From Eledone cirrhosa (lineage: Eukaryota): a stretch of 64,000 nucleotides of DNA. Position 1 is the stretch's first letter. Every line of letters starts with the position of its first letter. Shown piece by piece: positions 15,925-36,720 of the stretch. The notes under the pieces were generated by a model. It saw nothing but the letters and a program-made list of their open reading frames with translations. It was not told where the DNA came from and did not search any database. The stretch is from assembly GCA_964016885.1 (NCBI GenBank), contig OZ024743.1:327050001-327114000 (forward strand). The letters are read 5' to 3'. The position numbers and the translations under genes are program-made.

Positions 15925-17544
15925 CAGTGCCCCGCAAAGGTTTACAACACATTAGGAAAAATGTGGTTTTAGGTATTTTTAATAAAGTTAGGGTGATGGA
16001 AATTTAACTACTGATAGAACATATAATGAGGCATTTAATGATACAATCATAGTTTTAAAAAATAACAAGGAAATAACTCATGAAGAAAAATCAATATTTT
16101 TATAACGCAAAAGTTTACAACACATTTATTAAATCATTTCTTAATATTTTGTAGCGTAACCTTTGTTGCTAATTACAGCCTGTAGGCGTTTGAGGTAGCC
16201 TCTTACAAACTTCTTGCATGTTTCTTGGCTAATATTTATCCATTCTTCATAACAAATTTTCTTTAGTTCAGGGATATTTTGGGGTTTCCTTTTTTGAATT
16301 CTGAGTTTCAGTTCTCTCCACAAATTTTCGATCAGATTAAGATCTGGAGACTGACTTGGCCATTTTAGAACATTTGTTCCATTCGTACTTAACCAAGATT
16401 GTGTTAGCTTTGCAGTATGCTTTGGATCGTTACCTTGTTGAAAAAACCAACCTGGCTTTAAGCTGAGAGAATGTGCATTTTGATGTAAATTCCTTTGCAA
16501 AATACCTCTATAATAAGTGCCGTCCATTCTTCCTTCTATTATTTCAATATTTCCTACACCTATGGCACTAAAGCAACCCTAGACCATGATTGATCCACCT
16601 CCAAATTTTACAGTTGGAATAGTATTCTCCAGCGAATATTCAGTACCTTTCTTTCTCCAGACTTTTGCCACAGCATTTCGACCAAAAAGTTCAATTTTTG
16701 TTTCGTCCGACTAAAGTACATCTTCCCAAAATGACGCAGGTTTGATGAGATGCTCATTTGCAAAGTTTAATCGACGAAGAACGTGTTTCCTCGTAAGAAG
16801 TGGTGTTTTCCTTGGAGACCTCGAGAAAATATTATATTAACGAAGTGAACGACTAATTGTATCTGTGCTCACTTTTACTCCACTTCCTTCTAGGTCATCC
16901 TAAAGATTTTAAAGAGTACACTGGGGTTCGTTGCCAACCTTTCTCATCAATAACCGAGCTGCACGTTCCGTTATCTTTCTAGGACAACCAGAACTATTTA
17001 GAGGACAGATGGAATGATGAGATTTCCAGTGACTGAACACAATGGCACATTTAACTGACAAGATATCTTTCTATAACCAACACCATTTGTATGAAGGTCT
17101 ACAATGCATTTACGGTGGTCTTCATCAATCAGTTTATTTTTCCCCATATTGTCAATGTTTACAGAACGGTTGTCAATGTTTACAGGATGGTTATCAATGT
17201 TTACAGGATGGTTATCAGACAAATAATAACGTAATGTTTTTAATAGTCCTTCGAAGTTACCTTAAACCTAATCTAGAACATTCTACTGAATTTTAAATCC
17301 GAAAATTTAAGAATTTTCTTGAAAAAAAGCGATAAATATAAAATGTGTTGTAAACTTTTGCGTTATAAAAATATTGATTTTTCTTCAGGAGTTATTTCCT
17401 TGTTATTTTTTTTTAAATATGATTGTATCATTAAATGCCTCATTATATGTTCTATCAGTAGTTAAATTTTCATTACCCTAACTTCATTAAAAATACCTAA
17501 AACCGTATTTTTCCTAATGTGTTGTAAACTTTTGCAGGGCACTG
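15925..17544 (-). mobile_element. Tc1-family DNA transposon with long IR/DR-type TIRs
   Basis: TA|CAGTGCCC ... GGGCACTG; ~205-bp TIRs (15925-16130, 17338-17544), each with outer and inner GTTTACAACACATT repeats; sits in (TA)n. Confidence 0.93.
16141..17147 (-). pseudogene. Tc1 DD34E transposase, inactivated
   Basis: MGKNK start at 17147; SDETKIELFG, TVKFGGGSIMV, FQQGNDPKH (D mutated), WPSQSPDLNLIENLW, KGYATKY*; in-frame stops and frameshifts. Confidence 0.92.
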
Positions 17545-17560
17545 TGTATATATATATAGG

Positions 17561-17747
17561 TAAGTTATACCGGGTTGAATCGGAGGTAGCCACATAAGGC
17601 ACTCAATACATAGCAGATTATAAAAGTTTTAATATAGATGAGATTCTACAGAACTAGAGCTGTTTCATTCTTTAGAAATCATCAGGGATTCCTGATAATT
17701 TCTAAAGAATGAAACAGTTCTAGTCCTGTAGAATCCCATCTATATTA
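17561..17747. mobile_element. palindromic twin-hammerhead element, copy 1 (Penelope pLTR-derived)
   Basis: 57-bp inverted arms 17630-17686 / 17691-17747 (53/57 matched); each arm carries CTGAT(G/A)A...GAAACAG...CTGTA on its own strand; homologous to 20563-20756; flanked by TA repeats. Confidence 0.8.
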
Positions 17748-17750
17748 TAT

Positions 17751-20549
17751 ATCATCATCATCATCATTTTACGTCCGCTTTTCCCTGCTTGCAAGGGTGG
17801 GACGGGTCTTATTCAGCACAGCATCTCTCCACTTGTCACCGTCCTTTGTCATCTCCACCGTGAGCTTCAGCGATCTGAGGTCTGTTCTCACCACCTCTGC
17901 CCATGTTTTTCGTGGTCTGCCTCTACCACGTCTTCCCTCAACTGGCATTTCCTGGCACTTCTTCACCCATCGGTCATCCTCCATGCGCATTACATGTCCA
18001 TACCACCTCAGTCTCTTCTCCTGTACACTACATTCTATCCCTCTCAGAGACAGTTTCTCTCTCAACACATTTACACTGCACATCCAACAGAGCATGCTTG
18101 CCTCATTTCTCTCCAGCCGTTGCATATCCTCTGCAGTTGCTGCCCATGTTTCACTACCATGCAGCATCGCGCTCCTCACACAGGCATCATATAACCGGCC
18201 TTTCGTACGTAGGGAGAAACGCTTCTTCGTCAGCAGAGGAAGCATCTGCCTAAACTTCTTCCAACCCGTCCTTATTCTAGATACTATGGCCTCGGAACAC
18301 CCCCTCCCATGCTAATCTGATCTAGGTACCAGAAGCTATCCACCACTTCTATAGCACCAGCCTGCATTTGAAAAATGTGTCTATCAATGCGACTTCTACT
18401 GTCTAATTTCCCTGTACATCTACTGCATACATATTTCTCCCTACCTGTTAGTTTGCCTGCTATCCCACTACATCTCTTGTGTACCCAGGATCTGCATTGT
18501 GTGCATTTTATAGAATTTATGCCAGTTCCTTTTCTGCATATCGAACATGGCCATTTCCCTGACGGAATCAGAGTTTTGTCCTCTTTTCTACTCATCAACA
18601 CTTTTGTCTTAGCTAGGTTCACTCTCAGTCCTCTTGCTTCTAACTGCTGTTTCCATAGCCAGAATTTATTCTCTAGGCTCCTCTACTGATTCTGCTACAA
18701 GAACCAGATCGTCAGCATAGAGAAGTTCCCATGGACAGCCAGTCTTAAACTCCTCTGTTATGGCTTGGAGGACTATAATGAACAAGAGCGGCTTGATGTA
18801 CTCCTACTTGTATCTGGAATTCCTCACTAAACTCCATTCCTACCCTCACTTTACTGACAGCACCTCTGTACAAAGTTTGCAGTCCTCACGAGCCATTCCT
18901 CAACACCTAGTTTCCTTAGGGACCACCAGATGACAGATCGGGGTACCCTATCAAAGGCCTTCTCTAGGTCAACAAAGGCTAAGTATAGTGGCTTATTCTT
19001 CTCTAAGAACCTCTCTTGTAATTGTCTCACCAAAAAGAGAGCATCTGTTGTACTTTTCCCAGGCACAAAACCAAACTGCATCTCATCTAGTTTGACCCTT
19101 TCTCTAATTAGTTGTGCTAATATCCTTTCTGCCACTTTCATAACCTGATCCATCAGTTTTATACCCCTATAATTGCTCCTCTCCAGAGCATCCCATTTAC
19201 CTTTGTAGCAATTTATGAGAATACTGCTGCACCAGTCTTTGGGTATGACACCACCATATATAGCCTGATTGATGATGCGTGCAACCAGTTTAGTGCCTAC
19301 GTCCCCTGATGCCTTCAGCATCTCAGCAACTATTCCCGATGGTCCAGCAGCCTTACCATTTTTCATTTCCTTAATCGCCTCTTGGACCCTATATTCGTCA
19401 ATCTCAATAGCTGGTCCCTCTGTCGGATCTACTAAGGTTAATTTCTCTCTCCCATTCGTTCTCCACATTCATCAGTCTCTCATAATGACATTTCCAGGCC
19501 TCCTTTTTCTGATCATTCGTGACACTAAGTACACCGGCATCATTCTGGACACATTTATCTCCAACATCCTGATTTGCATTGACACACTGACTTGCAATGT
19601 GGAACACCGCACGCCTCTGATCTTCTCGTCGCAGAACATTGGCAAACCTCCTACTCACAGCCTCTCTGCGTGCTAAGTACACCTGACGTCTAGCTTCTCT
19701 CTTAGCGGCTGTATATCCTTCTCTACTCCCACCCTTTTTTCCAAGCCTTACATGCTAGTCTTTTGTCTCTAATGGCCTTATCTACTGTGCTGTTCCACCA
19801 CCAGGTCACTCTCTGTCTGGTTGGAGCTCTGCTCCACCCACAAGTTTCATCAGTAGCCTGCAGTAAGTTGTCACCCCAGAGTATGCCTTGGTATTTGACA
19901 CCATCTGCCTGTCCCGCTGCCTAACTACTAAGAAGTCAATCTGGCTTATGTGCTCGCCTGATTTGTAGGTTATTAGGTGGTTGGCAGGTTTCTGGAAGTT
20001 AGTGTTGCAAATGGTTAGTGCACTTGCATCACAAAATTCAAGAAGTCTCACTCCTTCTTCATTTCTTGAGCCGTAACTGTGCCCACCATGTACCCCAGTG
20101 TAACCATCCTGGAGCTGTCCAACATGACCATTGAAGTCTCCTGCTAGCATAACAATGTCTCCGTCCTCTGTCATTACGGTTGTTTGTAAAAGTTGCTCGT
20201 AAAAGCAGTCTTTCTCTTCTCTGCCTGTGCCTGCTTGGGAAGCATAGGCAGAGATGATTGTCAGTAGTCTCCTGCCTACAACTAATCTAAGCTTAATTAT
20301 TCGATTACTAACTCGAACTACCTCTATTGTCTTATTGATCCATCTTTCAGCCAGGAAAATGCCTACTCCCCCAAACCCATCATCCTTACCTACCCAGAAA
20401 AGCTTATAGCTAAGATGTTTGCCTGCAACTAGTCTCGCAGAGGCACCTCTCCATCTCACCTCTTGCACGCAGCACACATCCACATGTCCTCTCTCCAGCA
20501 TCTCCGCTATTTCAGCAGATCTACCTGAGAGAGTGCCAACATTAAGTGT
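17751..20549 (-). mobile_element. RTE-clade LINE (subfamily C, very short 3' UTR), 5'-truncated and internally deleted
   Basis: APE (DVCCVQEVRW, GDFNGHVG, SQIDFL), RT (AFVDLEKAFDRV, ELLYADDL), C4HC3 finger, RLRWYGHVMR; ORF runs into the (GAT)n tail. Confidence 0.93.
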
Positions 20550-20562
20550 ATATATATATATA

Positions 20563-20756
20563 TAAGTTATTCCGGGTTGAATCGGGGGTAACCACAGTAA
20601 GTAAGGTACTCAATACATAGCAGAGTATAAAAGTTTTAATATAGAAGAGCTTCTACAGGACTAAGACTGTTTCATTCGTGAGAAATCATCAGGAAGCTTC
20701 CTGATGATTTCTCACAAATGAAGCAGTTCTAGTCCTGTAGAAGCTCTTCTATATTA
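20563..20756. mobile_element. palindromic twin-hammerhead element, copy 2
   Basis: 60-bp inverted arms 20637-20696 / 20697-20756 (56/60 matched), no spacer, axis in GGAAG|CTTCC; flanked by TA repeats. Confidence 0.82.
20648..20698 (-). ncRNA. type I hammerhead ribozyme motif with intact core
   Basis: Minus strand AGCTTC-CTGATGA-T TTC TCAC GAA T-GAA-ACAG TCTTAGTC CTGT-A|GAAGCT: 6-bp stem I, 4-bp stem III, GUA cleavage triplet. Confidence 0.75.
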
Positions 20757-20773
20757 TATTATATTATATATAT

Positions 20774-21240
20774 ATCATCATCATCATCAACGTTTAACGT
20801 CCGTGTTCCACGCTTGCATGGGTTTGGACGGGGGTAGTCCCACTTGAGGCAAGAGTGATTGTCTTGCTCGCATAGGACTGTCTGGCAGGTTTTCTACAGT
20901 TGGATGCCCTTCCTAACACCAACCACATTTACAGTGTGGGTCTGGGAGGTTTTTACCGTGTTGCCTACATGGCCACATTACAGCGTGGACTGTGTGTTTT
21001 TTGTCGTGACACCTACACGATCTCATTTGTTTCGGCCTCGATGGCGCGGCACCAACATAACTTTACATAGAACGGGGTGGTGTGGATCGGGTGGGAGTGG
21101 TGGTGGTGGGACGGGGTGTATTTTGTTAGAGATGCCTACTGGCTGGAGTAGGTTTTACTATATATTTAGGTAAGGCGGGTCTTCTCTGTTACTGAGTACC
21201 GCCAAAGGTCTCGGTCCAGTGACATTGTCTTGGAGAGGTG
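20774..21240 (-). mobile_element. RTE (subfamily A) 3' UTR, 5'-truncated
   Basis: (CAT)n then AACGTCCGTGTTCCACGCTTGCATGGGTT, GGATGCCCTTCCTAACACCAAC; homologous to 55330-55740. Confidence 0.85.
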
Positions 21241-32328: not shown

Positions 32329-32600
32329 TTCAATGAATTACTGGTGGTGGTACCAAAATGAGCACTCAATGCACAGGCAAAGTGTATAAAGAAAAACAAA
32401 GTTTATTTTACATACAGTTTTTGTTTTGTGTATCAACTTTTTGTTACACGCATTTCGCAGAGGACTGGCTCAGGGTCACCCATAGAAGTTATGGACCCGA
32501 CTATTATCGATCTGCTCTTCAAACTGGTGATTCAACAAAAAAATACAGTATTCATTTTATTATAGAAATGACTTCTACAGGGCTAGAGCTGTTTCATTTG
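32329..32600 (-). mobile_element. Penelope-like pLTR fragment with two tandem hammerhead-like motifs
   Basis: Minus strand: GAAACAG..CTGTA|GAAG half-motif (same family as 17561 and 20563), then TTGAAGA-GCAGA...TCTGC-GAAATGCGTGTA, then GCATTGAGTGC tail motif. Confidence 0.6.
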
Positions 32601-34911: not shown

Positions 34912-36720
34912 CCCTTTAGCATTTACATTACTCTATATATACTATTGTATTTTTGTGGTAAAGGCTTTATCTTACATAATTATCTCACATAATATAATAA
35001 TAATGAAACGTTTGTGTAAAGTGCTCAGGTGCACTACAACTCGTCAAAGGTGCATGTATACTACATAGAATAATATACAAATGTCAGGGAAATGAACTGT
35101 GTATGAGTTGTGATATACATGTGTGCATGTGTATGGATGGGGAACATTAGGTGTAGTGTTGGCGAATCTCGGGAAACATGGAGGTTTTAAAGGATGCAGA
35201 GTCTCGACAGCTAACAACTGATGCAGGTAGTTTGTTCCATGCTTCAGCAACTCTGAGCGTGAAAAAATGTTTCCGAAAGTCAAGGGAACTGTGCTGTTTT
35301 CTGACTTTGTGGACATGCCCACGTGTGTTAGACACATGGAAATCAAAAAGGTACTCAGGGTTGTTGTTGGCAAGATGGTTAACAATTTTGTGGGCGTTTA
35401 CCAAGTCAGTTGCCAGGCGTCGGAGCTTCAATGTATCCATGCACAGGGAAGCAAGGCGTTCAGAGTATGGTAGATGCTTGATGGAGGGTATTCGCTTGGT
35501 TGCATGTCTCTGAACAGTTTCCAGGTGGTCAATGTTCTGAGCAAGATAGGGGTTCCAGACTGGTGATGCAAATTCTAAGTGTGGCCACACCATAGTCATG
35601 TACAGCCTTAAATAGATAGCTGGAGAGCAGCTGACAAAGGTCTTGCTGAGTGATGCTAAGACACCCTCAGCCCTCTTGACAATTTTAGAGACGTACTTCG
35701 TCCAACACAAATCGTTGCTGACCGTAATGCCCAGGTCACGTTCACAAGAAGACTTCTTGATATTAGTGCTGTGGAGGGAGTATGTGGACACTGGGTTTTT
35801 ACTCACAAAATGCATGGTGGTGCACTTGTCCACAGCTAGCTTGAGTTGCCAGTCTGAGAGCCATTGTTGCATTGTGTCCAGGTCAGACTGCAAGCAAGAT
35901 CTATAGTGTTCAGGATCTGTCCTTTTTATCTCAAGGTACAGCTTGATGTCATCTGCATACTTTAGTACTGTGGCATTCTTTAAGTTGGCATCTATGTCAT
36001 TAATATATGCCACAAACAAAAGGAGGCCAAGAACAGATCCCTGTGGTACACCAGATGACATCTCATATGGTGAGGAATGCTGTCCCAGAATCGTGACTAC
36101 CTCTCTCCAACTGAGAATGAAGGACTTCAACCAGTTAAAAAGATCATCCTTCACACCCATTGCAGAGAATTTTGCCATAAGCCTTTTGTGTGGCACAGAA
36201 TTGAAAGCTTTCTCAAAGTCAAGGTAAACAACATCCACCCATGAGCCGCCATCAGTGATCCGGGTGATGTCCTCAAGAAAGTCGATAAATTGATCAAGGC
36301 AGCTGGAGTTGGGGATAAATCCAAATTGCGAGGGCCGGATAAGACTGTGAGAGTTCCAGAATTTCCAAAGTGTTTCTCTGACACAGGATTCCATCAGTTT
36401 GGCAATGCAACTAGTAAGACTGACTGGACGATAGTTCACAGGTGATGTGCGGTCACCCTTTTTGAACAGAGGAATGACACTGGCAGTTTTCCACTGTTCT
36501 GGAGTAGCACCGTTGTTCAGACAGAATTGGAAGAAGCGTGATAGCTGCTTCCAATTCTGTCTGAACAACAGTGCTACTCCAGAACAGTGGAACCTATGAG
36601 ATTTTGATATTTATTTTGAGAACAATAGCTTAATATCAGCATGAGCAACCGGTTACAGCCGGTTTGAACAGAAAGAGGTGAGAGAATTCTGGCCGGATAT
36701 GGCTGGTTTGAATTAAAGGG
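34912..36720. mobile_element. piggyBac-type MITE family 1 split by a CR1 insertion (halves ~34912-34994 and ~36590-36720)
   Basis: TTAA|CCCTTTAGCATTTA ... AAAGGG|TTAA; the joined halves are collinear with 1429-1652. Confidence 0.85.
34995..36592 (-). mobile_element. CR1-clade LINE, 5'-truncated, with uninterrupted RT reading frame (ORF 35147-36568)
   Basis: PLFKKG, NYRPVSLTS, VVYLDFEKAFNSVPH, SGVPQGSVLG, KYADDIK, ERDLG, HLEFASPVWNP, TRGH, FFTLRVAEAWNKLP; ATT-rich tail. Confidence 0.93.

Follow-up and report, generated by a model that had tools for sequence, protein, structure and literature searches.

The window analysed here, a 64,000-nucleotide stretch of the Eledone cirrhosa genome (assembly GCA_964016885.1, contig OZ024743.1, positions 327,050,001 to 327,114,000 of the forward strand), carries two related elements of about 190 bp, copy 1 at window positions 17561-17747 and copy 2 at 20563-20756, which are 85% identical to each other. 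Each consists of a unique tail of roughly 70-75 bp and a palindrome bearing a hammerhead ribozyme motif, the whole set in (TA)n. In copy 1, 54 of 59 palindrome pairs match around an axis at 17688/17689, in copy 2 56 of 60 around 20696/20697, and both axes lie inside the 5' strand of stem I of the ribozyme. A first-pass annotation of the sequence had described this architecture, with the ribozyme paired with its own antisense copy, and it was borne out in all these respects. Such elements, hereafter called stubs, do not form a separate self-copying family: by sequence comparison they are the insertions of smallest size left by an autonomous Penelope-like element (PLE) that bears marks of the Hydra clade. 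We consider it probable that their palindromes are made afresh at each insertion, from two cDNAs copied off the 5' end of one RNA and joined head to head.

The first-pass annotation read every arm as a hammerhead. This was too generous, since only one arm out of four, the left arm of copy 2, contains an intact motif, with the predicted cut after GUA at 20654. The core of the right arm of copy 1 reads CUGAUAA (G8 to A), the right arm of copy 2 combines a change of A15.1 to G with a broken stem II pair, and the left arm of copy 1 has lost the 5' strand of stem I to the junction, one nucleotide being left. The difference in loop II between the copies (UAAA in copy 1, UCAC in copy 2) is real and marks two subfamilies. 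Coordinates are collected in Table 1.

Table 1. Features of the window (RT stands for reverse transcriptase, ORF for open reading frame, UTR for untranslated region, LINE for long interspersed nuclear element and C3 for a nucleotide of the hammerhead core CUGAUGA)
Feature	Position	Strand	Remarks
Copy 1, unique tail (stretch between two inferred RT start sites)	17561..17629	-	in the parent runs on into 5' UTR and ORF
Copy 1, long (tail) arm, hammerhead core	17630..17688	-	C3 at 17685; loop II UAAA subfamily
Copy 1, junction GGATTC	17686..17691		tail arm retains 1 nt, short arm 5 nt
Copy 1, short arm	17689..17747	+	hammerhead with G8 to A (17697); ends at second inferred RT start site
Copy 2, unique tail	20563..20636	-	sequence comparison
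Copy 2, long-arm hammerhead, intact	20648..20698	-	stem I AGCUUC/GAAGCU; C3 at 20692; loop II UCAC subfamily
Copy 2, junction GAAGCTTC	20693..20700		6 nt retained by each arm; overlap AGCT
Copy 2, short arm	20697..20756	+	hammerhead with A15.1 to G (20723) and stem II change (20716); ends in (TA)n
Fragment of this family, 44 bp, decayed (stem III and the 3' strand of stem I)	32555..32600	-	blastn E 4e-7, 84%
Unrelated 5'-truncated APE-type LINE between the copies	17748..20548	-	endonuclease and RT, (ATG)n 3' tail; no part of the element

The family is spread over the whole genome (3.0 Gb searched). A 27-nt core has 17,113 exact matches and its reversed control none; head-to-head pairs, defined as cores within 30 nt of each other, occur at no fewer than 4,179 loci, again against 0 in the control. 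For the tail motif 12,173 matches were found, and the commonest unit among the first 30 tail-bearing copies was the stub of about 190 bp without ORF or promoter (12/30). At locus L015 (1500-3133), whole palindromes form a tandem array with a nearly palindromic spacer of about 100 bp, giving 12 matches in 3 kb. The array has the appearance of a satellite that arose from a single stub.

Among the first 30 loci, two show no inversion and continue into common upstream DNA. The parent element was reached by walking out past the tail of locus L052 into a reading frame. A search with this extension returned 30 loci, many of them with promoter, hammerhead, tail and ORF in series. The order in the parent is CCAAT, TATA, hammerhead, tail, ORF (RT, CxCx5C, GIY-YIG), 3' UTR and a second promoter, hammerhead and tail, and its open stretches are 696 and 474 residues long. 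Copies of the long pseudo-long terminal repeat (pLTR) were at one point taken for a non-autonomous family, a view that was dropped because locus L096 connects them to the ORF end: it contains ORF end, 3' UTR, promoter, hammerhead (pLTR) and tail in that order. Since promoter, hammerhead and tail follow the ORF end there, each end of a full transcript would bear the hammerhead-tail region.

The parent protein displays the motifs SDKT, RWR, LYRDDG, CNCLNKEAC, CDLCISE and CMH. Its GIY-YIG-type motif (VYKC...TYIGMT) is matched by Pfam GIY-YIG at E 8e-4, with 20.1 bits just under the 22.6 cut-off. Pfam gave no RT match for the 696-residue frame, and the PLE-type RT was recognised by LYRDDG. Relatives of the protein number 1,273 at E<=0.001; among the 120 listed, YRDD is present in 120 and RW[KR] in 110, RWR standing at the RWK position of the parent. 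Judged by its motifs, the parent matches the definition of the Hydra clade given in section 11 of PMC8557442: DKT replaces DKG, the linker is of the CxCx5C type, and CxxC and CxH are found around the conserved E and N. The earlier supposition of a PLE origin, with the hammerhead in the pLTR, is supported by a parent having promoter, hammerhead, tail and RT/GIY-YIG ORF. The suggestion of a non-autonomous or retrozyme-like family is not, because an autonomous parent exists, the stubs are devoid of its promoter and their junctions differ from locus to locus.

Several further observations concern the parent and its relatives. Its 3' UTR contains a long (TA/CA) microsatellite, its own preferred target, and is often interrupted by other insertions (L172:3300-4030, L178:4200-4600, L040:1900-2260). 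Inside the 3' UTR of one parent copy lies a 507-residue frame of another PLE family, with a YVDD RT and, at its C-terminus, a GIY-YIG-like region (L174:5617-7137, plus strand). Additional PLE-like RT fragments (GLPKIHK...YLDD) are located on the minus strand of L093 and in L092, as two near-identical blocks 21 kb apart. Four ORF copies (L099, L107, L175 and L177) have at least 200 nt upstream of the inferred start site, for which a longer-than-unit or read-through template would be needed, a known PLE puzzle.

We examined the outer ends of stubs at 50 loci taken in genome order, the first 50 of the 4,179. The long (tail) arm ends 125-133 nt after C3 in 39 of them. In 41, the end of the short arm lies at a distance of 54-67 nt from C3, the values near 67 reflecting creep of the alignment into TA. 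Twelve longer inverted copies have scattered seams, and 11 of these share both outer ends. Stubs and parent copies alike are flanked by (TA)n, which masks any target-site duplication. The legend to Fig. 2 of PMC8557442 describes this tail geometry for PLEs, in which the pLTR is inverted and truncated and just one end bears a tail. PMC11167929 links it to two internal RT start sites that are used from both nicked strands: a purified PLE protein introduces nicks into the two strands of the target and extends them, the RNA start sites bound the tail and the template is uncut.

The seams between the arms are variable. After removal of a duplicate (L190), 49 loci remained, with 32 kinds of junction: 23 overlap by microhomology of 1-3 nt, 2 are blunt and 24 contain inserts. 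The palindrome arms are perfect in only 3 of the 50 stubs, and the junction spread is alike in every subfamily. Nevertheless, the seam forms a cluster, though not at one fixed base, and the cluster has a wall. The longer-kept arm retains 5-6 nt of the 5' end upstream of CUGAUGA in 32 of the 49 loci; 7 nt are kept in 6, which are chance overlaps with the other arm. In 10 loci it retains at most 4 nt, and in 1 it plainly extends further. The first-pass annotation asked whether a foldback axis is fixed at stem I. It is not, and what stands is the clustering. An apparently fixed axis among the 30 best BLAST loci was dropped, the query having carried junction bases and unselected loci showing the spread.

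Such diversity bears directly on the idea of a palindromic non-autonomous element which propagates itself, in the manner of a short interspersed element, a miniature inverted-repeat transposable element or a retrozyme, and is copied as a unit from master stubs. The high copy number would be accounted for, as would the recurrence of some junction types, among them the GGATTC of copy 1. This recurrence, however, came from queries that included junction bases. With 32 junction kinds in 49 loci and 3 perfect palindromes in 50, no inherited fixed junction is visible. The stubs have neither a promoter nor head-to-tail units, and all subfamilies exhibit the same junction spread, so that we find this explanation barely credible.

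The arms of one locus are closely matched. Over 38 positions they differ by 1.8 on average within a locus and by 5.3 between loci (43 loci), in agreement with the earlier remark that arms resemble their partners more than other copies. Arms of different subfamilies, represented by two young loop II variants, are combined in 27 of 2,606 loci, whereas random pairing would give about 49% (from a 21:29 split, counted by eye in the first 50 listed). Both arms thus appear to derive from one RNA or one source locus.

Matched arms would also be expected if a single tail-primed cDNA reached stem I, folded back and was copied as DNA into the short arm, as the first-pass annotation had it. At a few junctions the sequence present is indeed what templating by a fold-back at stem I would give (ATGAGATTC in L183 and L184; L004). 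Among 41 tailed loci, however, the tail arm is the longer one in 17, the short arm in 18, and the two are equal in 6. That neither arm is consistently the longer speaks against snap-back and in favour of two end-joined cDNAs. In 12 of the 41, the short arm has 5 nt or more of the 5' end where the tail arm has at most 2, a state that no copy of the tail-arm cDNA can produce but that would result if two cDNAs each reached the end of the RNA and were trimmed during joining. Moreover, the 23 junctions overlapping by microhomology leave no loop, and a true fold-back at stem I would skip the core instead of mirroring it. As a general route, snap-back is therefore very unlikely. What survives of the earlier proposal is that the inversion is made anew near the 5' strand of stem I, with fold-back contributing only a small share of the junction inserts (L183, L184, L004).

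What determines the wall? We compared 57 promoter-bearing copies, one of which (L212) is spurious. In 40 of them the distance from the start of the TATA box to C3 is 35-36 nt, and CCAAT lies upstream in 47. In this main class, the wall 5-6 nt before C3 falls about 30 nt after the conserved TATA, at an initiator-like CCAG. RNA polymerase II usually starts transcription about 30 nt after TATA. Because of this spacing, the wall is likely to be the transcription start. A possible further sign of a capped template, a G at the position of a parental C in 8 of 11 distinct loci among those listed whose arm begins at AGATTC after (TA)n, was counted by eye and is not used here: the base expected from a fold-back at stem I is also G, and the eight include a remnant of an inverted arm.

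Alternatively, the wall could be an RT stop or a processing site in the 3' pLTR copy, such as a 3' splice site at CAG or a block at stem I by structure or protein. CAG is present at the wall in both main subfamilies, and in D. virilis the intron of Penelope extends to the 5' end of helix I (PMC4209133). The arms, on the other hand, retain the G or AG of this CAG, and the junctions reveal no common upstream exon or leader. TATA and CCAAT stand at their usual distances, and the 5' strand of stem I would be unpaired once RT had copied the 3' strand. We regard this alternative as unlikely.

Head-to-head PLE palindromes have been explained in the literature by self-priming on an antisense template (PMC3846280), which would produce both the head-to-head geometry and matched arms. 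For our stubs it is highly improbable. It needs antisense RNAs ending exactly where the sense promoter predicts a start, it leaves unexplained the microhomology and insert junctions, and it does not explain why the fixed outer ends should correspond to RT start sites on the sense RNA (PMC11167929). By sequence, the junctions fit two end-joined cDNAs better than this published reading.

The mechanism we favour, head-to-head joining of two cDNAs from one RNA, could run as follows. The PLE protein would nick both strands of (TA)n, and both cut strands would prime reverse transcription. Both RT start sites would occur in the RNA twice, once close to the 5' end and once within the 3' pLTR. If the 3' copy were used for priming, ordinary long, randomly truncated insertions would result; upon priming in the 5' copy, both cDNAs would run off the end of the RNA, after about 60 and about 135 nt. 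For joining the two, repair would then make use of microhomology of 1-4 nt or of short templated inserts. Stubs joined in this way would be promoterless dead ends, with the hairpin hiding the ribozyme on either strand.

Several points weigh against this reconstruction. The start site is deduced from promoter motifs only; the distance from TATA to C3 is 37-39 nt in 14 of the 57 copies, and a few ORF copies start 7-12 nt before C3 (L098, L108, L117). The wall coincides with CAG, a possible splice acceptor, as well as with the end of stem I. For the UCCC-loop subfamily, the upstream yardstick was taken from stem I and not from a promoter-bearing copy. Some inserts (L183, L184) resemble a stem I fold-back. 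Finally, the matching of arms could stem from one active source locus per cell or from later gene conversion.

Next, we consider the ribozyme itself. The type I hammerhead core (CUGANGA, GAAA, NUH) with stems I-III is present in the parent and in the left arm of copy 2. A scan with Rfam, which the first-pass annotation had called for, recovered no hammerhead model at E<=1, giving chance matches to miRNA hairpins only. Whole elements fold into hairpins of -88 to -106 kcal/mol. The intact arm, by comparison, reaches -6.7 when folded as a hammerhead, and its active fold is predicted 2 kcal/mol above the minimum. Since the antisense arm is transcribed first on either strand, the hairpin would bury the ribozyme in read-through RNA of both orientations. 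Co-folding of two copies through stem III and the CUAG loop is predicted at -20.0 and -22.8 kcal/mol, against about -7 per monomer; a dimer paired through stem III has been proposed for PLE hammerheads (PMC4209133).

Covariation proved more limited than first claimed. The pairing GGGAUUC/GAAUCCC attributed to stem I of copy 1 mixes junction bases with a rare variant, GAAUCC being found in stem I of 1 of the 57 promoter-bearing copies. A compensatory change is nonetheless present at pair 4 of stem I, which is A-U in 32 of these copies and C-G in 22, probably through a single event between subfamilies. No other covariation was detected in the 57 copies, stems II and III being essentially invariant. 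In an older-looking UCCC-loop subfamily (L329 and UCCC stubs), stem I seems to be GGCUUC/GAAGCC, a possible second compensatory pair.

Does the ribozyme cut in vivo? Because nearly all stubs retain the whole hammerhead motif, their templates were, we infer, mostly uncut by it. Palindromes with a seam near the cut site are rare (fewer than 100 loci, with 79 and 75 matches per strand); of about 62 such loci listed, 49 were examined, and 54 further matches exist. The 18 loci of this class that lack microhomology have 36 unambiguous arm ends, of which 10 coincide with the predicted bond, the mode of the distribution (with a rough null, taken at rates of 0.048 to 0.10, binomial P is 5e-6 to 2e-3). 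Such a peak at the scissile bond is no more than suggestive of in vivo cleavage. Pausing of RT at the base of stem III, or a later deletion, could produce one like it. In PMC11167929, no reads were found that end at the cut site. Tentatively, and with more doubt than confidence, we propose that stubs are a fossil map of 5' ends, in which the seams would record the capped start and the small second class ends made by the hammerhead in the germ line, both through double priming and end-joining, the ribozyme cutting about 1% of templates.

How does the family compare with known systems? Endonuclease-containing (EN+) PLEs of the Hydra clade (Craig et al. 2021, PMC8557442; Hydra-1_Obim, Hydra-2_Amil, Penelope-n_HM) have the same C-terminal GIY-YIG, DKT, CxCx5C, CxxC, CxH and (TA)n target. 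Their hammerheads (File S2 there) share CUGAUGAU...UGAA around stem II and an ACAG/CUGU-A stem III, and the Hydra table regularly shows the U...U on either side of stem II that would be unusual in a textbook hammerhead. The hammerhead listed for Hydra-1_Obim differs, hence ours is a different family. Loop III has 8 nt with a CUAG palindrome here, whereas the Hydra motifs listed have 1-3 nt. Our tail measures about 70 nt and not 30-40, and the 3' UTR holds a microsatellite. Insertion units of EN+ PLEs, whose inverted pLTR is 5'-truncated and whose tail is optional, likewise possess head-to-head arms and a tail at one end only (PMC3846280; PMC8557442, Fig. 2 legend). In our family, by contrast, the commonest unit is only about 190 bp long, without ORF or promoter, and its seam piles up at one wall. 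An inverted pLTR with a tail is thus already known from PLEs, and the stubs are not a new kind of ribozyme element.

PAc, a Poseidon element of Anolis (Frangieh et al. 2024, PMC11167929), is similar in that both strands are nicked in AT-rich DNA, two internal RT starts bound the tail and the hammerhead RNA is uncut. It belongs to another clade, and its ORF starts inside the hammerhead, whereas the first ATG of our parent lies about 175 nt after C3. The joining of two cDNAs and mini-palindromes are not treated in the part of that paper at hand. Non-LTR retrozymes (PMC7229834; bioRxiv 10.64898/2026.07.22.740005) are also short non-coding repeats with a type I hammerhead, kin to PLE pLTRs. They are, however, head-to-tail tandems giving circular RNA, while the stubs are dispersed and head to head, the ribozyme facing its own complement. 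A search outside which lay most subscription journals, Repbase/Dfam and several supplements turned up no paper describing mini-palindromic PLE stubs whose seam lies at the start site.

The window has several other features. The LINE between the stubs has matches to Pfam Exo_endo_phos (E 3e-7) and RVT_1 (E 1e-11) and further copies elsewhere in the window; we take it to be RTE-like. The notion that the two stubs are its LTR-like ends was rejected, since they belong to different subfamilies, are 85% alike and have only the (TA)n target in common. An (ATC)n 3' end of a LINE-like element directly adjoins each stub (17748-17767 and 20774-20789), a nested (TA)n hot spot. Elsewhere, a 21-bp tandem repeat is present in three copies at 17152-17217, and a 487-codon open frame at 35147-36610 (minus strand) belongs to none of the large LINE families.

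PMC8557442 names as open questions how the inverted ends of PLEs come about and whether PLE hammerheads cleave in vivo. The present family offers thousands of independent seams with markers that separate the models, a start predicted to the base and a candidate signal of in vivo cleavage. For the host, it means that no fewer than 4,179 near-perfect hairpins of 55-60 bp have been seeded in the genome. If read through, they would yield double-stranded RNA, which may be a substrate for ADAR or for small-RNA pathways.

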